Below are positions 1 through 19,338 of a DNA stretch of 23,092 nucleotides, piece by piece. The DNA is taken from the IMG/VR virus record IMGVR_UViG_2681813271_000002, one strand, 5' to 3'. Every line of letters starts with the position of its first letter. Positions within the stretch are counted from its first letter, which is position 1. Under the pieces are notes generated by a model, which was not told the origin of the DNA, did no database searches, and saw nothing but the letters and a program-made list of their open reading frames with translations. Both the position numbers and the translations under genes were made by a program. The stretch comes from a virus (lineage: Duplodnaviria; Heunggongvirae; Uroviricota; Caudoviricetes).

Positions 1-105
1 TGTGCGGGAATAATCAAAAACGATGCACACCGGGGTTACCGGGTACACATATTTCATCATGCCAGCGAGTCCGGTTCTGGCACGGAAGAAACCGGACGTT
101 ATGAT

Positions 106-534
106 TTAGTGCGGAAATATTTGTGTAGTGTTCTGTATGTTCTCAGTAAAGAGTAATGAATTATCAAAGGTATAGTAATANNNNNNNNNNNNNNNNNNNN
201 NNNNNNNNNNNNNNNNNNNNNNNNNNNNNNNNAAAACCCCTGCTGTAGCAAGATTTTTCCTGTATTCGTAAAATGATAACTCTCCTGATTTGAATCCTTT
301 TAAGGTGGCTTCTATAAGGCATTTATTTTTTGAAAATCTTACATTTACAACCTTACCCTGTCCTTTTATTAAAACCGTATTATCGTTTTCAAGAACAAGA
401 TGAATATTCTCTGTGGCTAAATAGTAAATGTAATGTGAGACATTGTGACGTTTTAGTTCAGAATAAAACCAGTGATAGTTTAAATTATTTCGCACTTTAT
501 CGAATATTTGTTTAAAAATGGCAACCTGAGCCAT
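106..534 (-). CDS. ydfO: DUF1398-family prophage accessory protein (YdfO/YbcV-like); interior interrupted by N-run 181-232
   Basis: Minus-strand ORF 106-549 from the track. Translation ([55 protein letters not shown]...[22 protein letters not shown]) matches my recollection of E. coli cryptic-prophage YdfO/YbcV proteins. The second in-frame ATG (534) has a GGAAGG Shine-Dalgarno 7 nt upstream; the first ATG (549) has none, so 534 is preferred. Position next to a ynfO-like gene and a Nu1 homologue mirrors the Qin prophage order nohA-ynfO-ydfO. Confidence 0.55.
181..232. other. N-run (52 nt), unresolved sequence inside the ydfO-like gene
   Basis: Run of n in the sequence. Confidence 1.
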
Positions 535-591
535 TGTAGTACCTTCCATGTGATATGAGGGGGCGTAGTCTGCACGATTATCTAAATTGCT

Positions 592-825
592 TCAATCTGG
601 TCTAACCTGTTTTCTGAGCAATTCAGTAATGTCACTCTTTTCTTTGTTTGCTTCAGGCGAAACTCTTTTTTCTGAGCACAGTCTCCGGCGGCAGGCTTCA
701 ATGACCCAGGCTGAGAAATTCCCGGACCCTTTTTGAACAAGAGCGATGTTAATTTGTTCAATCATTTGGTTAGGAAAGCGGATGTTGCGGGTTGTTGTTC
801 TGCGGGTTCTGTTCTTCGTTGACAT
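592..825 (-). CDS. ynfO: DUF3950-family small prophage protein (YnfO/YlcI-like), possible ribbon-helix-helix DNA binder
   Basis: 77-aa minus-strand ORF, MSTKNRTRRTTTRNIRFPNQMIEQINIALVQKGSGNFSAWVIEACRRRL..., matching recalled YnfO/YlcI proteins found next to terminase small-subunit genes in E. coli lambdoid prophages. Basic N-terminus followed by a short beta-strand/helix pattern is compatible with an RHH fold (inference). Confidence 0.6.
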   Translation of the reverse strand: MSTKNRTRRTTTRNIRFPNQMIEQINIALVQKGSGNFSAWVIEACRRRLCSEKRVSPEANKEKSDITELLRKQVRPD

Positions 826-984: not shown

Positions 985-1200
985 ATCATTTTGCGGGTCC
1001 TTTCCGGCGATCCGACAGGTTACGGGGCGGAAGGCGCGCGGGTTTTCGCTATTTATGACAATTTTCCGGTTTAAGGCGTTTCCGTTCTTCTTCGCCGTAA
1101 CCTAATGTTTTTATTTAAAACACCCCCTGAAAAGAAAGGAAACGACAGGTGCTGAAAACGGGCTTTTTGGCCTCTGTCGTTTCCTTTCTCTGTTTTTGTC
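985..1200 (+). promoter_or_regulatory. cos: cos DNA-packaging site: cosQ, cosN and cosB with three Nu1-binding R elements
   Basis: Near-identity to the recalled lambda right-end/left-end junction (…gatgataattattatcattttgcgggtcctttccggcgatccgacaggttacg|gggcgg…cgcgggttttcgctatttatga…). R-element motif CGTTTCC(G/T)TTCT occurs at 1077-1090 (R3), inverted at 1134-1148 (R2) and direct at 1177-1190 (R1). R2 and R1 form a perfect 15-bp inverted repeat (gaaaggaaacgacag at 1134-1148, ctgtcgtttcctttc at 1174-1188). Sits immediately upstream of nu1. Confidence 0.85.
1025..1036 (+). promoter_or_regulatory. cosN: cosN cohesive-end segment (12 nt between the terminase nick sites); variant GGGCGGAAGGCG versus canonical lambda GGGCGGCGACCT
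   Basis: Flanks acg|…|cgcgggttttcgc are identical to lambda. The 12 nt between them differ at positions 7-12. Confidence 0.7.

Positions 1201-1733: not shown

Positions 1734-1759
<26 letters not shown>
1214..1759 (+). CDS. nu1: terminase small subunit Nu1 (cosB-binding)
   Basis: 181-aa ORF MEVNKKQLADIFGASIRTIQNWQEQGMPVLRGGGKGNEVLYD…, essentially lambda gpNu1. Located directly downstream of cosB; its 3' end overlaps A. Confidence 0.97.
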
Positions 1760-5440
<3,681 letters not shown>

Positions 5441-11627: not shown

Positions 11628-14181
11628 ACCGGTAGGCGATCTGGTCGTTGATTTGAGTCTGGATGCGGCCAGATTTGACGAGCAGATGGCCAGAGTCAGG
11701 CGTCATTTTTCCGGTACGGAAAGTGATGCGAAAAAAACAGCGGCAGTCGTTGAACAGTCGCTGAGCCGACAGGCGCTGGCTGCACAGAAAGCGGGGATTT
11801 CCGTCGGGCAGTATAAAGCCGCCATGCGTATGCTGCCTGCACAGTTCAACGACGTGGCCACGCAGCTTGCAGGGGGGCAGAATCCCTGGCTGATCCTGCT
11901 GCAACAGGGTGGTCAGGTTAAGGACTCCTTCGGCGGGATGATCCCCATGTTCAGGGGGCTTGCCGGCGCGATCACCCTGCCGATGGTGGGGGCCACCTCG
12001 CTGGCGGTGGCGACCGGTGCGCTGGCGTATGCCTGGTATCAGGGCAACTCAACCCTGTCCGATTTCAACAAAACGCTGGTCCTTTCCGGTAATCAGGCGG
12101 GACTGACGGCAGATCGTATGCTGGTCCTGTCCAGAGCCGGGCAGGCGGCAGGGCTGACGTTTAACCAGACCAGCGAGTCACTCAGCGCACTGGTTAAGGC
12201 GGGGGTAAGCGGTGAGGCTCAGATTGCGTCCATCAGCCAGAGTGTGGCGCGTTTCTCCTCTGCATCCGGCGTGGAGGTGGACAAGGTCGCTGAAGCCTTC
12301 GGGAAGCTGACCACAGACCCGACGTCGGGGCTGACGGCGATGGCACGCCAGTTCCATAACGTGACGGCGGAGCAGATTGCGTATGTTGCTCAGTTGCAGC
12401 GTTCCGGCGATGAAGCCGGGGCATTGCAGGCGGCGAACGAGGCCGCAACGAAAGGGTTTGATGACCAGACCCGCCGCCTGAAAGAGAACATGGGCACGCT
12501 GGAGACCTGGGCAGACAGGACTGCACGTGCATTCAAATCCATGTGGGATGCGGTGCTGGATATTGGTCGTCCTGATACCGCGCAGGAGATGCTGATTAAG
12601 GCAGAGGCTGCGTTTAAGAAAGCAGACGACATCTGGAATCTGCGCAAGGATGATTATTTCGTTAACGATGAAGCACGGGCGCGTTACTGGGATGATCGTG
12701 AAAAAAAACGCCTGGAGCGGGATGCAGCCCAAAAGAGGGTAGATCAACAGCGTCAACAGGACAAAAATGCGCAGCAGCAGAGCGATACCGAAGCGTCACG
12801 GCTGAAATATACCGAAGAGGCGCAGAAGGCTTACGAACGGCTGCAGACGCCGCTGGAGAAATATACCGCCCGTCAGGAAGAACTGAACAAGGCACTGAAA
12901 GACGGAAAAATCCTGCAGGCAGATTACAACACGCTGATGGCGGCGGCGAAAAAGGATTATGAAGCGACGCTGAAAAAGCCGAAACAGTCCGGCGTGAAGG
13001 TGTATGCGGGCGATCGTCAGGAAGACAGTGCTCATGCGGCCCTGCTGACGCTTCAGGCAGAACTCCGGACGCTGGAGAAGCATGCCGGAGCGAATGAGAA
13101 AATCAGCCAGCAGCGCCGGGATTTGTGGAAGGCAGAAAGTCAGTTCGCGGTACTGGAGGAGGCGGCACAACGTCGCCAGCTGTCCGCACAGGAGAAATCC
13201 CTGCTGGCGCATAAAGACGAGACGCTGGAGTACAAACGCCAGCTGGCTGCACTTGGTGACAAGGTTACGTATCAGGAGCACCTGAATGCGCTGGCGCAGC
13301 AGGCGGATAAATTCGCACAGCAGCAACGGGCAAAACGGGCAGCCATTGATGCGAAAAACCGGGGGCTGACTGACCGGCAGGCAGCGCGGGAAGCCACGGA
13401 ACAGCGCCTGAAGGAACAGTATGGCGATAATCCTCTGGCGCTGAATAACGTCATGTCAGAGCAGAAAAAGACCTGGGCGGCTGAAGACCAGCTTCGCGGG
13501 AGCTGGATGGCAGGCCTGAAGTCCGGCTGGAGTGAGTGGGAAGAGAGCGCCACGGACAGTATGTCACAGGTTAAAAGTGCAGCCACGCAGACCTTTGATG
13601 GTATTGCACAGAATATGGCGGCGATGCTGACCGGCAGTGAACAGAACTGGCGCAGCTTCACCCGCTCCGTGCTGTCCATGATGACAGAAATTCTGCTTAA
13701 GCAGGCAATGGTGGGGATTGTCGGGAGTATCGGCAGCGCCATTGGCGGGGCTGTTGGTGGCGGCGCATCCGCGTCAGGTGGTACAGCCATTCAGGCCGCT
13801 GCGGCGAAATTCCATTTTGCAACCGGGGGATTTACGGGAACCGGCGGCAAATATGAGCCAGCGGGGATTGTTCACCGTGGTGAATTTGTCTTCACGAAGG
13901 AGGCAACCAGCCGGATTGGCGTGGGGAATCTCTACCGGCTGATGCGCGGCTATGCGGAAGGTGGTTATGTGGGCGGTGCCGGAAGTCCGGCGCAGATGCG
14001 GCGGGCTGAAGGCATTAATTTTAATCAGAACAATCACGTGGTGATTCAGAACGACGGTACGAATGGTCTGCCAGGTCCACAGATGATGAAGGCCGTGTAT
14101 GACATGGCCCGCAAGGGGGCACAGGATGAACTCCGGCTGCAGTTGCGTGATGGCGGTATGTTATCAGGGAGCGGTGGATGA
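11620..14181 (+). CDS. H: tail tape measure protein H
   Basis: 853-aa ORF (the lambda gpH length) with a long helical/charged central region and a Gly-rich C-terminal segment. Position between GT and M; start overlaps the end of T. Confidence 0.95.
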   Translation: MAEPVGDLVVDLSLDAARFDEQMARVRRHFSGTESDAKKTAAVVEQSLSRQALAAQKAGISVGQYKAAMRMLPAQFNDVATQLAGGQNPWLILLQQGGQVKDSFGGMIPMFRGLAGAITLPMVGATSLAVATGALAYAWYQGNSTLSDFNKTLVLSGNQAGLTADRMLVLSRAGQAAGLTFNQTSESLSALVKAGVSGEAQIASISQSVARFSSASGVEVDKVAEAFGKLTTDPTSGLTAMARQFHNVTAEQIAYVAQLQRSGDEAGALQAANEAATKGFDDQTRRLKENMGTLETWADRTARAFKSMWDAVLDIGRPDTAQEMLIKAEAAFKKADDIWNLRKDDYFVNDEARARYWDDREKKRLERDAAQKRVDQQRQQDKNAQQQSDTEASRLKYTEEAQKAYERLQTPLEKYTARQEELNKALKDGKILQADYNTLMAAAKKDYEATLKKPKQSGVKVYAGDRQEDSAHAALLTLQAELRTLEKHAGANEKISQQRRDLWKAESQFAVLEEAAQRRQLSAQEKSLLAHKDETLEYKRQLAALGDKVTYQEHLNALAQQADKFAQQQRAKRAAIDAKNRGLTDRQAAREATEQRLKEQYGDNPLALNNVMSEQKKTWAAEDQLRGSWMAGLKSGWSEWEESATDSMSQVKSAATQTFDGIAQNMAAMLTGSEQNWRSFTRSVLSMMTEILLKQAMVGIVGSIGSAIGGAVGGGASASGGTAIQAAAAKFHFATGGFTGTGGKYEPAGIVHRGEFVFTKEATSRIGVGNLYRLMRGYAEGGYVGGAGSPAQMRRAEGINFNQNNHVVIQNDGTNGLPGPQMMKAVYDMARKGAQDELRLQLRDGGMLSGSGG

Positions 14182-14507
14182 AAACCTTTCGCTGGAAAGT
14201 GAAGCCGGATATGGAGGTGAACTCGCAGCCATCGGTGCGTGAAGTGCGTTTTGGTGACGGGTACTCACAGCGTATGGCGGCAGGGCTGAATGCTGACCTG
14301 AAAACATACAGGGTGACGCTTTCCGTGACCCGGGAGGAGGCCCGGCATCTGGAAGCGTTCCTGGCAGAGCACGGTGGCTGGAAGGCATTTTTGTGGAAGC
14401 CACCCTATGCATACCGGCAGATAAAGGTGACCTGTGCCGGGTGGTCTGCGCGGGTCGGGATGTTGCGCGTTGAGTTCAGCGCGGAGTTTAAGCAGGTGGT
14501 GAACTGA
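14178..14507 (+). CDS. M: tail tip protein M, copy 1 (diverged)
   Basis: 109-aa ORF MKTFRWKVKPDMEVNSQPSVREVRFGDGYSQRMAAGLNADLKTYRVTLSV…. ATGA overlap with the H stop. About 82% identical to the visible part of copy 2. Confidence 0.9.
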   Translation: MKTFRWKVKPDMEVNSQPSVREVRFGDGYSQRMAAGLNADLKTYRVTLSVTREEARHLEAFLAEHGGWKAFLWKPPYAYRQIKVTCAGWSARVGMLRVEFSAEFKQVVN

Positions 14508-15205
14508 TGCAGGATATTCGCGAAGAAAGTCTGAACGAGTCGGTTAAGTCAGAGCAGTCACCGCGGGTGGTACTCTGGGAAATCGACCTGACGGTACAGG
14601 GTGGTGAGCGGTATTTTTTCTGTAATGAGCTGAATGAAAAAGGGGAGCCGGTCACCTGGCAGGGGCGTAAGTATGAGGCATACCCGATTGACGGCAGCGG
14701 CTTTGAGATGAACGGCCGGGGCAGCAGTGCCAGACCGTCGCTGACGGTGTCCAATCTGTTCGGTCTGGTCACCGGGATGGCGGAAGACCTGCAGAGTCTG
14801 GTGGGGGCCACGGTGGTCCGCCGCCGGGTGTATGCCCGTTTTCTGGATGCGGTGAATTTCGTTGCGGGCAATCCGGAGGCGGACCCGGAGCAGGAGCTGA
14901 GTGACCGCTGGGTGGTGGAGCAGATGTCGCAGCTGACAGCCATGACGGCCTCGTTTGTGCTGGCTACACCGACCGAGACGGACGGGGCGCTGTTTCCCGG
15001 TCGCATCATGCTGGCGAACACCTGTATGTGGGATTACCGGGGAGATGAATGCGGGTATAACGGTCCTGCGGTGGCGGATGAGTTCGACAACCCCACCACG
15101 GATATCCGTAAGGACAGATGCAGCAAGTGCATGCGCGGGTGTGAACTGCGCAGGAATGTCGGCAATTTTGGCGGTTTCCTTTCCATTAATAAACTTTCGC
15201 AGTAA
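14507..15205 (+). CDS. L: tail tip assembly protein L, copy 1 (diverged; C-terminal Cys cluster conserved)
   Basis: 232-aa ORF; TGATG overlap with M. Cysteines in …NTCMW…DECGY…RCSKCMRGCE… are conserved with copy 2. About 77% identical to copy 2 by hand count. Confidence 0.9.
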   Translation: MQDIREESLNESVKSEQSPRVVLWEIDLTVQGGERYFFCNELNEKGEPVTWQGRKYEAYPIDGSGFEMNGRGSSARPSLTVSNLFGLVTGMAEDLQSLVGATVVRRRVYARFLDAVNFVAGNPEADPEQELSDRWVVEQMSQLTAMTASFVLATPTETDGALFPGRIMLANTCMWDYRGDECGYNGPAVADEFDNPTTDIRKDRCSKCMRGCELRRNVGNFGGFLSINKLSQ

Positions 15206-15215
15206 ATCCCGGTTT

Positions 15216-15959
15216 ATGACACAGACTGAATCAGCGATTCTGGCACATGCCCGGCGGTGTGCGCCTGCGGAGTCGTGCGGCTTCGTGATAAGCACGCCGG
15301 AGGGGGAGCGGTATATCCCTTGTGTGAATATTTCCGCAGAGCCGGAGGCGTATTTTCGTATCGCACCGGAAGACTGGCTGCGGGCAGAGATGCAGGGGGA
15401 GATTGTGGCACTGGTCCACAGTCATCCCGGTGGGCTGCCCTGGCTGAGCGAGGCTGACCGGCGGTTGCAGATAAAAAGCGCACTGCCCTGGTGGTTGGTC
15501 TGCCGGGGTGACATTCACAAATTCCGCTGTGTGCCACATCTGACAGGACGGCGCTTTGAGCACGGGGTGACGGACTGTTACACGCTGTTCCGGGATGCTT
15601 ATCATCTGGCGGGGACTGAAATGCCGGATTTTCATCGCGAGGATGACTGGTGGCGCAACGGTCAGAACCTTTACCTGGACAATATGGCGGTCACCGGCTT
15701 TTACCGGGTGCCCCTGTCCTCTGCACAGGCGGGCGATATTCTGCTGTGCTGCTTTGGTGCTTCGGTACCGAACCATGCCGCCATTTACTGCGGCAACGGT
15801 GAGCTGCTTCACCATCTGCCTGAACAACTGAGTAAACGGGAGAGGTATTCCGAAAAATGGCAACGACGAACGCATTCAGTCTGGCGTCACCGCCACTGGC
15901 ACGCATCTGCCTTCACGGGGATTTACAACGATTTGGCCGCCGCCTCAGCCTGTATGTGA
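15216..15959 (+). CDS. K: tail tip assembly protein K, copy 1 (JAMM/MPN domain plus NlpC/P60 domain)
   Basis: The track ORF 14955-15959 starts inside L; the K-homologous sequence begins at ATG 15216 (MTQTESAILAHARRCAPAESCGF…), giving 247 aa. Contains HSHPGGLPWLSEAD (HxH-x7-S-x2-D JAMM motif) and a downstream Cys/His pair typical of NlpC/P60. About 88% identical to copy 2. Confidence 0.88.
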   Translation: MTQTESAILAHARRCAPAESCGFVISTPEGERYIPCVNISAEPEAYFRIAPEDWLRAEMQGEIVALVHSHPGGLPWLSEADRRLQIKSALPWWLVCRGDIHKFRCVPHLTGRRFEHGVTDCYTLFRDAYHLAGTEMPDFHREDDWWRNGQNLYLDNMAVTGFYRVPLSSAQAGDILLCCFGASVPNHAAIYCGNGELLHHLPEQLSKRERYSEKWQRRTHSVWRHRHWHASAFTGIYNDLAAASACM

Positions 15960-16416
15960 ACACGGCAGCGGAAGCCATTCGCGCCCTGTCGATGCAGATG
16001 CCGGGCTTTCGCCGTCAGATGAACGAAGGCTGGTACCAGATACGTATTGCCGGTTATGACACGGCACCGGAGGCGGTGTACGCCCGTCTTCACGAACAGC
16101 TGGGTGAGGGAACGGTCATCCACATTGTGCCGCGACTGGCCGGGGCCGGAAAGGGTGGACTGCAGATTGTGCTGGGGGCGGCAGCCATCGTGGGCTCTTT
16201 CTTCACTGCCGGGGCATCAATGGCGTTATGGGGTTCAGCCCTGGCAGCCGGTGGTTTTTCTGCCACCACGATGCTGTTTTCACTTGGAGCCAGCATGATT
16301 CTGGGCGGTGTGGCCCAGATGCTGGCCCCGAAGGCAAAAACACCGGATTACCGCGCAACGGATAACGGCAGACAGAACACGTACTTTTCCTCACTGGATA
16401 ACATGATTGCCCAGGG
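15857..16416 (+). CDS. I: tail tip assembly protein I, copy 1 (diverged); 3' end lost in N-run
   Basis: Starts at 15857 in a different frame overlapping the K 3' end by 103 nt, exactly as in copy 2. Encodes MATTNAFSLASPPLARICLHGDLQRFGRR…FSLGASMILGGVAQMLAPKAKTP… (first 187 aa visible). About 68% identical to copy 2. Confidence 0.85.
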
Positions 16417-17050
16417 NNNNNNNNNNNNNNNNNNNNNNNNNNNNNNNNNNNNNNNNNNNNNNNNNNNNNNNNNNNNNNNNNNNNNNNNNNNNNNNNNNNN
16501 NNNNNNNNNNNNNNNNNNNNNNNNNNNNNNNNNNNNNNNNNNNNNNNNNNNNNNNNNNNNNNNNNNNNNNNNNNNNNNNNNNNNNNNNNNNNNNNNNNNN
16601 NNNNNNNNNNNNNNNNNNNNNNNNNNNNNNNNNNNNNNNNNNNNNNNNNNNNNNNNNNNNNNNNNNNNNNNNNNNNNNNNNNNNNNNNNNNNNNNNNNNN
16701 NNNNNNNNNNNNNNNNNNNNNNNNNNNNNNNNNNNNNNNNNNNNNNNNNNNNNNNNNNNNNNNNNNNNNNNNNNNNNNNNNNNNNNNNNNNNNNNNNNNN
16801 NNNNNNNNNNNNNNNNNNNNNNNNNNNNNNNNNNNNNNNNNNNNNNNNNNNNNNNNNNNNNNNNNNNNNNNNNNNNNNNNNNNNNNNNNNNNNNNNNNNN
16901 NNNNNNNNNNNNNNNNNNNNNNNNNNNNNNNNNNNNNNNNNNNNNNNNNNNNNNNNNNNNNNNNNNNNNNNNNNNNNNNNNNNNNNNNNNNNNNNNNNNN
17001 NNNNNNNNNNNNNNNNNNNNNNNNNNNNNNNNNNNNNNNNNNNNNNNNNN
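16417..17050. other. N-run (634 nt) at the junction between the two M-L-K-I copies
   Basis: Run of n. Must contain the last ~36 codons of I copy 1 and the first ~20 codons of M copy 2; if the length is real, more than 400 nt of content is unknown. Confidence 1.
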
Positions 17051-17322
17051 TAAGAAAGGTGCGCTTTGGTGATGGCTATTCCCAGCGAGCGCCTGCCGGG
17101 CTGAATGCCAACCTGAAAACGTACAGCGTGACGCTTTCTGTCCCCCGTGAGGAGGCCATGGTACTGGAGTCGTTTCTGGAAGAGCACGGGGGCTGGAAAG
17201 CCTTTCTGTGGACGCCGCCTTATGAGTGGCGGCAGATAAAGGTGACCTGCGCAAAATGGTCGTCGCGGGTCAGTATGCTGCGTGTTGAGTTCAGCGCAGA
17301 GTTTGAACAGGTGGTGAACTGA
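17051..17322 (+). CDS. M: tail tip protein M, copy 2 (lambda-type); 5' end lost in N-run
   Basis: In-frame from the gap edge: (R)KVRFGDGYSQRAPAGLNANLKTYSVTLSVPREEAMVLESFLEEHGGWKAFLWTPPYEWRQIKVTCAKWSSRVSMLRVEFSAEFEQVVN, i.e. the C-terminal ~89 residues of an M homologue. Truncated by the gap, not a pseudogene call. Confidence 0.85.
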
Positions 17323-18020
17323 TGCAGGATATCCGGCAGGAAACACTGAATGAATGCACCCGTGCGGAGCAGTCGGCCAGCGTGGTGCTCTGGGAAATCG
17401 ATCTGACAGAGGTCGGTGGAGAACGTTATTTTTTCTGTAATGAGCAGAACGAAAAAGGTGAGCCGGTCACCTGGCAGGGGCGACAGTATCAGCCGTATCC
17501 CATTCAGGGGAGTGGTTTTGAACTGAATGGCAAAGGCACCAGTACGCGCCCCACGCTGATGGTTTCTAACCTGTACGGTATGGTCACCGGGATGGCGGAA
17601 GATCTACAGAGTCTGGTCGGCGGAACGGTGGTCCGGCGTAAGGTTTACGCCCGTTTTCTGGATGCGGTGAACTTCGTCAACGGAAACAGTGACGCCGATC
17701 CGGAGCAGGAGGTGATCAGCCGCTGGCGCATTGAGCAGTGCAGCGAACTGAGCGCGGTGAGTGCCTCTTTTGTACTGTCCACGCCGACGGAAACAGATGG
17801 CGCTGTTTTTCCGGGACGTATCATGCTGGCCAACACCTGCACCTGGACCTATCGCGGCGATGAGTGCGGTTATCACGGTCCGGCGGTCGCGGATGAATAT
17901 GACCAGCCAACGTCCGACATCACGAAGGATAAATGCAGCAAATGCCTGAGTGGCTGTAAGTTTCGCAATAACGTCGGCAACTTTGGCGGCTTCCTTTCCA
18001 TTAACAAACTTTCGCAGTAA
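17322..18020 (+). CDS. L: tail tip assembly protein L, copy 2
   Basis: 232-aa ORF MQDIRQETLNECTRAEQSASVVLWEIDLTEVGGERYFFCNEQNEKGEPVTWQGRQYQPYPIQGSGFELNGKG…; TGATG overlap with M copy 2; same Cys cluster as copy 1. Confidence 0.93.
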   Translation: MQDIRQETLNECTRAEQSASVVLWEIDLTEVGGERYFFCNEQNEKGEPVTWQGRQYQPYPIQGSGFELNGKGTSTRPTLMVSNLYGMVTGMAEDLQSLVGGTVVRRKVYARFLDAVNFVNGNSDADPEQEVISRWRIEQCSELSAVSASFVLSTPTETDGAVFPGRIMLANTCTWTYRGDECGYHGPAVADEYDQPTSDITKDKCSKCLSGCKFRNNVGNFGGFLSINKLSQ

Positions 18021-18025
18021 ATCCC

Positions 18026-18769
18026 ATGACAGAGACAGAATCAGCGATTCTGGCGCACGCCCGGCGATGTGCTCCAGCGGAGTCGTGCGGCTTCGTGGTA
18101 AGAACGCCGGAGGGGGAAAGATATTTCCCCTGCGTGAATATCTCCGGTGAGCCGGAGGCGTATTTCCGTATGTCGCCGGAAGACTGGCTGCAGGCAGAGA
18201 TGCAGGGTGAGATTGTGGCACTGGTCCACAGCCACCCCGGTGGTCTGCCCTGGCTGAGTGAGGCCGACCGGCGGCTGCAGGTGCAGAGTGATTTGCCGTG
18301 GTGGCTGGTCTGCCGGGGGGCGATTCACAAGTTCCGCTGTGTGCCACATCTTACCGGGCGGCGCTTTGAGCACGGGGTGACGGACTGTTACACGCTGTTC
18401 CGGGATGCTTACCATCTGGCGGGGATTGAGATGCCGGATTTTCATCGTGAGGATGACTGGTGGCGTCACGGTCAGAATCTCTATCTGGATAATCTGGAGG
18501 CCACAGGGCTGTATCAGGTGCCGTTGTCAGCGGCGCAGCCGGGCGATGTGCTGCTGTGCTGTTTTGGTTCATCGGTGCCGAATCATGCCGCCATTTACTG
18601 TGGTGACGGCGAGCTGCTGCACCATATTCCTGAACAACTGAGCAAACGAGAGAGGTATACCGACAAATGGCAGCGACGCACACACTCCCTCTGGCGTCAC
18701 CGGGCATGGCACGCATCTGCCTTTACGGGGATTTGCAACGATTTGGCCGCCGCATCGACCTTCGTGTGA
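18026..18769 (+). CDS. K: tail tip assembly protein K, copy 2 (JAMM/MPN plus NlpC/P60)
   Basis: 247-aa ORF MTETESAILAHARRCAPAESCGFVVRTPEGERYFPCVNISGEPEAYFRMSPEDW…HSHPGGLPWLSEAD…. The internal Met49 corresponds to the classically annotated 199-aa lambda K start. Confidence 0.92.
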   Translation: MTETESAILAHARRCAPAESCGFVVRTPEGERYFPCVNISGEPEAYFRMSPEDWLQAEMQGEIVALVHSHPGGLPWLSEADRRLQVQSDLPWWLVCRGAIHKFRCVPHLTGRRFEHGVTDCYTLFRDAYHLAGIEMPDFHREDDWWRHGQNLYLDNLEATGLYQVPLSAAQPGDVLLCCFGSSVPNHAAIYCGDGELLHHIPEQLSKRERYTDKWQRRTHSLWRHRAWHASAFTGICNDLAAASTFV

Positions 18770-19338
18770 AAACGGGTGCCGAAGCCATCCGGGCGATGGC
18801 CACACAGCTCCCTGCGTTTCGTCAGAAGCTGAGCGACGGCTGGTATCAGGTGCGTATTGCCGGGCAGGATGTTAGCACGTCCGGATTAACGGCGCAGTTA
18901 CATGAGGCTCTGCCTGACGGCGCTGTGATTCATATTGTTCCCAGAGTCGCCGGGGCCAAGTCAGGTGGTGTATTCCAGATTGTCCTGGGAGCAGCCGCCA
19001 TTGCCGGATCATTCTTTACCGCCGGAGCCACCCTTGCAGCATGGGGGGCTGCCATTGGTGCCGGTGGTATGACCGGCATTCTGTTTTCTCTCGGTGCCAG
19101 TATGGTGCTCGGCGGTGTGGCTCAGATGCTGGCACCGAAAGCCAGAACTCCCCGCACACAGACAACGGATAACGGTAAGCAGAACATCTATTTCTCCTCA
19201 CTGGATAACATGGTTGCCCAGGGCAATGTTATGCCTGTTCTGTATGGTGAAATGCGCGTGGGGTCACGTGTGGTATCTCAGGAGATCAGCACGGCAGACG
19301 AAGGGGACGGTGGTCAGGTTGTGGTGATTGGTCGCTGA
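18667..19338 (+). CDS. I: tail tip assembly protein I, copy 2
   Basis: 223-aa ORF MAATHTLPLASPGMARICLYGDLQRFGRRIDLRVKTGAEAIRAMATQLPAFRQKLSDGWYQVRIAG…GQVVVIGR, matching lambda gpI. Overlaps the K 3' end in another frame. Confidence 0.93.
   Translation: MAATHTLPLASPGMARICLYGDLQRFGRRIDLRVKTGAEAIRAMATQLPAFRQKLSDGWYQVRIAGQDVSTSGLTAQLHEALPDGAVIHIVPRVAGAKSGGVFQIVLGAAAIAGSFFTAGATLAAWGAAIGAGGMTGILFSLGASMVLGGVAQMLAPKARTPRTQTTDNGKQNIYFSSLDNMVAQGNVMPVLYGEMRVGSRVVSQEISTADEGDGGQVVVIGR

Follow-up and report, generated by a model that had tools for sequence, protein, structure and literature searches.

A recurrent cosN allele with five right-half substitutions at the cos site of a lambda-type prophage

Lambda-like phages are defined by 12-base 5' ends related to those of lambda, and differences at base pairs (bp) 7-12 of this sequence are common among them (Feiss and co-workers, PMC4669245). 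Natural variants include those of N15 and phiD326 at bp 9 and 12 and that of Gifsy-1 at bp 8, 9 and 11 (PMC4669245), as well as the right-half variant of mEp213 and LLS, which reads GGGCGGCGCGCT (PMC12315714); the N15 record itself reads GGGCGGCGTCCG. The left half is the functionally critical and conserved half of cosN, and mutations of the right half are largely silent: the change G2C costs about 10-fold, its symmetric partner C11G nothing (PMC4669245). This asymmetry is attributed to the right half adjoining cosB, where Nu1 anchors gpA and nicking depends little on sequence; the CG flanks and the highly conserved cosQ are under selection, and bp 7-12 are not (PMC4669245). The nick is positioned by the spacing between R3 and cosN rather than by the cosN sequence (PMC9026076, citing Higgins and Becker 1994). 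The TerL of lambda gives equal yields on cosN-lambda and cosN-N15, the N15 allele being the only experimental precedent for the cutting of a variant by an unaltered TerL, and the published tolerance tests altered one or two bases (PMC4669245), against five in the site described here. Helper-embedded PICIs (HE-PICIs), which are inserted in the late genes of lambdoid prophages, are also an already published type (PMC10111431).

The cos site under study lies in a window of 23,092 nucleotides, the whole stretch of viral DNA of IMG/VR record IMGVR_UViG_2681813271_000002. Its features are the following:

995-1001, + strand: cosQ heptamer GGGTCCT, the packaging-termination signal, read directly and invariant in the alignment with lambda-like phages
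1023-1038, no strand assigned: cosN, 16 bp, made of the 12-bp cohesive-end sequence and two conserved CG flanks
1025-1036: cohesive-end 12-mer GGGCGGAAGGCG, where lambda has GGGCGGCGACCT
1025-1030, + strand: left half of cosN, GGGCGG, with the top-strand nick predicted between 1024 and 1025
1031-1036, + strand: variant right half of cosN, AAGGCG (CGACCT in lambda), with the bottom-strand nick predicted between 1036 and 1037
1074-1089, + strand: R3, the critical Nu1 (TerS) binding site of cosB, AGGCGTTTCCGTTCTT, identical to lambda, at cohesive-end bp 50-65
1133-1148, - strand: R2, an inverted R site, AGAAAGGAAACGACAG as the reverse complement of R1, an exact match to lambda
1174-1189, + strand: R1, CTGTCGTTTCCTTTCT, an exact match to lambda
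1214-1759, + strand: Nu1, terminase small subunit, 181 amino acids, 178/181 (98%) identical to lambda Nu1
1734-3659, + strand: A, terminase large subunit gpA, the cos-nicking endonuclease, 641 amino acids, 638/641 (99.5%) identical to lambda

The surroundings of the 12-mer are of the lambda type, as the preliminary description of this DNA had reported. Both the reading of the window and the alignment place cosQ 23 bp ahead of cohesive-end base 1, the place equivalent to that in lambda, and the sequence then runs ...CAGGTTACG, GGGCGGAAGGCG and CGCGGGTTTTCGC... Positions 1023-1030 read CGGGGCGG and 1037-1038 read CG, and both G2 and C11 are kept. The distances of R3, which has been defined as bp 50-65 (PMC9026076), and of R2 and R1 from cosN are unchanged, with zero indels relative to lambda, and Nu1 starts 189 bases after cohesive-end base 1 as it does in lambda. 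The conserved spacing and flanks predict 12-nt 5' overhangs at the nick positions listed above. T151S, D185E and T466I are the only differences of the window gpA from that of lambda, and the lambda head genes, Nu1 through FII, are all present in full, with identities of 94-100%. In the window, cos is directly followed by Nu1, A, W, B and further genes, the ORFs ahead of it match PHROG families other than those of the satellite genes, and the site is not a satellite cos of the PICI or HE-PICI kind.

Alignment of the window with lambda (as prophage DE3), 2H10, PhiR63_1 and Turner required no indels and confirmed a five-position difference within the 12-mer: 7 C>A (1031), 8 G>A (1032), 9 A>G (1033), 10 C>G (1034) and 12 T>G (1036). 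These are the only positions of the 12-mer at which the window departs from all four aligned phages. The preliminary description was right that the 12-mer, which its interval 1013-1046 brackets, differs from that of lambda and reads as it stated, and wrong in having all of positions 7-12 differ: position 11 (C, 1035) is that of lambda, so five of the six right-half bases are changed. Five of the 11-22 differences found over 276 aligned columns thus crowd into six adjacent bases. The hypergeometric probability of this is 2e-7 to 1e-5 for any one such stretch, or 6e-5 to 3e-3 once multiplied by all 271 positions. Chance, or uniform substitution, is ruled out as the explanation of this clustering. 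The changes also lower the rotational symmetry of cosN from 10 of 16 bp in lambda to 8 of 16; the symmetric pairs 3/10 and 6/7 are lost and 4/9 is gained, and the critical symmetric pair G2/C11 is kept.

Two local origins for the patch were considered. A second copy of AAGGCG stands at 1073-1078 (cohesive-end bp 49-54), on the left edge of R3; templated copying from there would have taken place without flanking microhomology, and since a 6-mer match within 200 bp is unremarkable the resemblance is probably a coincidence. A local inversion fares no better than direct substitution, because CGACCT reads AGGTCG on the other strand, and this agrees with AAGGCG at just 4 of 6 bases. As a separate observation, the variant bases create GCGCGC (a BssHII site, in an alternating GCGCGCG run) at 1034-1039, which spans the predicted bottom-strand nick and is absent at that place in lambda.

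The allele proved to be widely distributed. A first scan of IMG/VR, with the lambda flanks fixed and the 12-mer free, showed the canonical sequence to be predominant, with GGGCGGAAGGCG and the related GGGCGTCAGGCG also present. A tally of IMG/VR alleles recovered those of N15 and Gifsy-1 together with 13 others, and CG at -2/-1 and 13/14 was kept in every natural allele, positions 13-14 being unconstrained by the search pattern. A scan for exact GGGCGGAAGGCG gave 56 IMG/VR contigs, which come from numerous separate genomes and metagenomes. Nu1 or Nu1 and A lie immediately downstream in 47, which are therefore phage cos sites; five are satellite cos, three end near cos and are unclassifiable, and one has a Nu1-A deletion. 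No homologues of the satellite HTH, decoration or capsid genes were found upstream of any of the phage-type carriers. At least 28 distinct local flanking haplotypes carry GGGCGGAAGGCG, several cosQ-to-cosN spacers included. In the contig with the deletion (L131, IMGVR_UViG_3300039332_000035), the first ~30 codons of Nu1 are fused to gpA from about residue 56, and its packaging module is a degraded copy.

A lambda-type cos is present in 3,482 of the 5,426 complete E. coli genomes, and 158 of the 5,426 contain the variant, phage and satellite cos together; this count rests on a 28-base exact match that necessarily spans the variant bases, and the division into phage and satellite cos comes from IMG/VR alone. 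The matched places number 169, 16 of them on plasmids, most of those listed being ~46 kb in size, and among the E. coli matches listed ~14 records match the -40 to +51 context at 95.6% identity or more. In the GenBank phage collection, GGGCGGAAGGCG is found in PhiR46_1 and YDC107_1 only, both deposited in prophage form, and no phage record beginning at the variant 12-mer, which would have been evidence on virion ends, was found. PhiR46_1 (L147, PV340565; host ECOR13 according to the record metadata) is N15-like, with telL/telR, ParAB, a primase and lambda head and tail genes. It and YDC107_1 (L140) are N15-like telomere phage-plasmids with a large primase, lambda-proper packaging, head and tail genes and a gpA ~99% identical to that of the window. 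A scan of one genome per species (position 12 not T, lambda flanks) returned only Escherichia sp. E1V33 and one chance match in Microlunatus, and within that collection the allele looks confined to Escherichia. The 12-mer was also sought in the literature, a 2017 survey of cosN variants excepted, and the one paper retrieved was on plants and unrelated.

In a first sample, no fixed difference in gpA or Nu1 separated the carriers of the two alleles. The nearest gpA of a canonical carrier is one amino acid away from that of the window, the differing residue being private to that canonical contig, and the three differences of the window gpA from lambda are all polymorphic and common among canonical-cos carriers. 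The comparison was then enlarged and dereplicated to 49 unique canonical haplotypes and 27 unique variant ones; in this set, three gpA sequences are each found, without any amino acid change, alongside either allele. The sites associated with the allele in this set are cos-proximal only, namely gpA 9 and 21 and the middle domain of Nu1, a pattern that linkage would be expected to produce. Co-variation with gpA T466I, which was present in 10 of 11 variant and 9 of 39 canonical sequences of the first small sample, was rejected, as the enrichment was gone in the dereplicated set (15 I and 12 T among variant haplotypes versus 17 I and 32 T among canonical ones, P = 0.09). Residue 466 adjoins what we take, from the nuclease motifs of terminases, to be a probable active-site aspartate. 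The terminase has very probably not co-evolved with the variant cosN.

A haplotype of the Nu1 middle domain (residues 71-148; L127, L129, L136, L139, L140 and others) was observed in 12 of the 27 variant and 2 of the 49 canonical haplotypes. It comprises Q71L, Q78H, I82L, Y84F, D95T, R103K, D104E, G123R, A126S, E144D and V148I and leaves the N-terminal DNA-binding domain of Nu1 unchanged; the allele probably spread on this background.

Flanks identical to those of the window on one or both sides of the patch are found with the canonical allele. Outside the patch, one such contig (L117) agrees with the window over -60 to +34, the downstream sequence of another (L116) is identical to the window through +430, and the Nu1 gene of the window has no nucleotide difference from that of a third carrier of the canonical 12-mer (L072). 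From these comparisons, cos is evidently a recombination junction at which the 12-mer segregates independently of its flanks. Mismatched ends are known to survive until replication, both alleles being recovered (PMC4669245). Building on this, one likely route for the transfer of an allele onto new flanks would be the packaging of a hybrid concatemer, which would give a chromosome with one end from each parent; cyclisation and replication could then leave either 12-mer between the flanks of the other parent.

The second allele, GGGCGTCAGGCG, is that of elements inserted in gene E of lambda-like prophages; along with their cos, these elements have an integrase, a primase, an SSB, E-like and D-like capsid genes and a regulator of the HTH class, and the commonest type has its own small terminase, 35% identical to Nu1. 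As an example, an HE-PICI at 26149-38450 of L260 (E. coli APEC E14033, NZ_CP126948) interrupts gene E of a lambda-like prophage located at attB-lambda (ybhC side) and contains int, primase, SSB, E-like capsid, D-like decoration, HTH and cos, and similar elements are present in L094 and in 68 loci (L261-L327). These 68 loci, fetched via the satellite integrase, yielded 30 pairs in which both cos sites are visible, and L260 and L234 bring the total to 32. The right-half alleles of prophage and embedded satellite differ in 26 of these 32 non-independent pairs, and the satellite right halves include AAGGCG itself and the canonical one. L234 (IMGVR_UViG_2623620496_000002) shows the opposite of the usual arrangement, being an AAGGCG prophage with a satellite in portal gene B that has the canonical 12-mer; its colinearity with the window ends at window position 4693. 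No TerL gene is annotated in the satellite of L260 and none was detected downstream of cos in those of L094, L119 and L130; the helper gpA would therefore have to cut both cos sites, and helper and satellite in pairs with different alleles appear to share one TerL. As read from these sequences, cosN alleles pass between helpers and satellites. The mismatch of right halves in 26 of 32 pairs does not figure in the passages of PMC10111431 on the HE-PICI type.

The cos of HE-PICIs shares with that of the window cosQ, the left half of cosN and ~34 bp to its right; its right half may be AAGGCG or the near-identical CAGGCG, and its cutting depends on the gpA of the helper. Whereas the window cos has the lambda R3/R2/R1 and is followed by Nu1 and A, most of the satellite cos sites examined have another cosB, with the satellite capsid, decoration and HTH genes upstream. 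Upstream of cos, the window and the APEC E14033 prophage, 98% identical elsewhere, lose their colinearity over window positions 1-662: iss/bor and ylcI occupy this place in APEC E14033, and two ORFs on the - strand, at 106-549 (PHROG 413, labelled head protein) and 592-825 (PHROG 949), occupy it in the window.

Compared with the cos of lambda, the site in the window is alike in cosQ, left half, CG flanks, R3/R2/R1, spacing and Nu1 start, and differs at bp 7, 8, 9, 10 and 12 and in having 8 rather than 10 of 16 bp symmetric. With the variants of N15, phiD326, Gifsy-1, mEp213 and LLS it shares the restriction of changes to bp 7-12 and the conservation of left half and CG flanks. It has five changes where N15, Gifsy-1 and the like have one to three, and it sits with an essentially lambda terminase and cosB, whereas the N15 and Gifsy-1 variants sit with diverged terminases and cosB types. 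The allele of the window lies at the divergent end of the known right-half cosN spectrum.

The window probably holds the working cos of a lambda-type prophage with a natural, neutral or near-neutral right-half allele of cosN. The allele is an ordinary polymorphism of the kind already known for the right half of cosN, and involves no new packaging system or mechanism. Nu1 would bind the unchanged R3/R2/R1 of cosB and thereby hold gpA at a fixed distance, so that the bottom strand would be nicked between bp 12 and 13 largely whatever the sequence of bp 7-12; the top-strand nick would rely on the intact left half GGGCGG and the CG flank. Packaging would then be normal and yield 12-nt 5' overhangs, GGGCGGAAGGCG and its complement, which should anneal to each other as stably as those of lambda and mismatch lambda-type ends at five positions. 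The allele would be a long-standing one that recombination at cos has carried between lambda-like prophages, helper-embedded PICI satellites and those N15-like telomere phages that have a lambda head. We infer the nick positions, the normal packaging efficiency and the neutrality, and the loss of pairs 3/10 and 6/7 with five changes may bring some drop in cutting efficiency. The preliminary description had expected the change to matter for recognition by gpA and to bear on packaging efficiency. Neither expectation is supported, in view of the published tolerance of bp 7-12 and the equal yields of TerL-lambda on cosN-lambda and cosN-N15 (PMC4669245), the lack of any fixed gpA or Nu1 difference, the identical gpA proteins with both alleles and the retention of G2/C11 and the CG flanks.

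The tail-tip genes of the window occur twice. A divergent M'-L'-K'-I' set at 14178-16417, in which the four genes are 80, 77, 87 and 68% identical to lambda (region 14178-19338), has I' fused within a 398-amino acid ORF (15857-17053) whose C-terminal half is without PHROG match. It is followed by a second, lambda-like set made of a truncated M (17059-17322), L, K and I (97-98%) and J. This partial duplication of M-L-K-I has the look of a scar left where two tail modules recombined, and the prophage may be tail-incompetent or defective for reasons unrelated to cos.

A sequencing or assembly error in the window record, which the preliminary description had put forward as a possible outcome, has nothing in its favour other than the a priori oddity of five clustered changes; the identical 12-mer in 56 IMG/VR contigs, 158 complete E. 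coli genomes and two GenBank phages, that is in many independent assemblies, excludes it, and we give it a negligible probability. The same recurrence weighs against the idea that this is the decayed, non-functional cos of a defective prophage, the cluster being damage that abolishes or cripples cutting. Change in five of six right-half bases with the loss of two symmetric pairs, the partly duplicated tail-tip region of the window and the Nu1-A deletion of carrier L131 all fit such decay, which however predicts scattered and heterogeneous changes rather than one exact allele on at least 28 backgrounds. Moreover, cosQ, the left half, the CG flanks, the R sites and the packaging and head genes are intact, PhiR46_1 is deposited as a complete phage genome with a propagation host named in its record, and the right half is experimentally tolerant (PMC4669245), all of which makes decay quite unlikely. 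Still less probable, and in our view very improbable, is a new packaging specificity, the outcome of co-evolution between the terminase endonuclease and an altered cosN that it now recognises. The enrichment of T466I in the first small sample (10/11 versus 9/39), at a residue beside a probable active-site aspartate, pointed that way, but the association was lost on dereplication (P = 0.09), three identical gpA proteins accompany both alleles, the Nu1 gene of the window is nucleotide-identical to that of a canonical carrier, and only sites near cos associate with the allele, as linkage predicts.

A more serious possibility, which we nevertheless consider less likely than not, is that the allele was imported from, or exported to, the cos of a helper-embedded PICI by recombination within the cosQ-cosN block common to both, and persists because distinct ends prevent the joining of helper and satellite. 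It concerns origin and selection and is thus compatible with the working, near-neutral allele preferred here. At the satellite cos of L172, L210, L269, L272 and L346, AAGGCG is found together with another type of cosB and a satellite TerS, the commonest satellite allele GGGCGTCAGGCG is only two positions away from that of the window, chimeric alleles such as GGGCGTCGACCT exist, and the APEC E14033 prophage has AAGGCG with GGGCGTCAGGCG in its embedded satellite. The 26 of 32 helper/satellite pairs that differ are also in line with it, as is the 258-bp block of 90% identity common to a helper and its HE-PICI at cos (PMC10111431). Against this, the data give no direction of transfer, the pairs are phylogenetically non-independent, most satellites having 100% identical integrases, six pairs have the same allele, and neutrality accounts for the data equally well. 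We are doubtful of the further proposal that the right half of cosN is a sticky-end compatibility label, with selection against helper-satellite or co-resident-phage end-joining, rather than drift, maintaining several end types as a balanced polymorphism.

If the usual nicks are made, the ends of the phage would be 5'-GGGCGGAAGGCG and 5'-CGCCTTCCGCCC. Nearest-neighbour sums give the matched variant duplex -17.8 kcal/mol versus -18.2 kcal/mol for lambda; in a lambda/variant hybrid, with 5 of 12 positions mismatched, the GGGCGG block alone would be contiguous, at an estimated -8 kcal/mol or so. The preliminary view that these ends would be incompatible with those of lambda stands as a prediction. 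A 2-base end mismatch lowers viable yield 4-fold (PMC4669245), and a 5-base mismatch should be far worse.

DNA of the phage, or cosmids built on its cos, should still package with lambda terminase. Annealing and ligation to lambda-type ends would be expected to be inefficient, and chromosomes with mixed ends much less infectious than a 4-fold loss would imply. Our findings add a well-populated allele with five substitutions to the natural variation of cosN. Together, the identical gpA proteins found with both alleles and the helper/satellite pairs suggest, as evidence from nature, that cosB-anchored gpA may cut the right half of cosN in a nearly sequence-independent manner.
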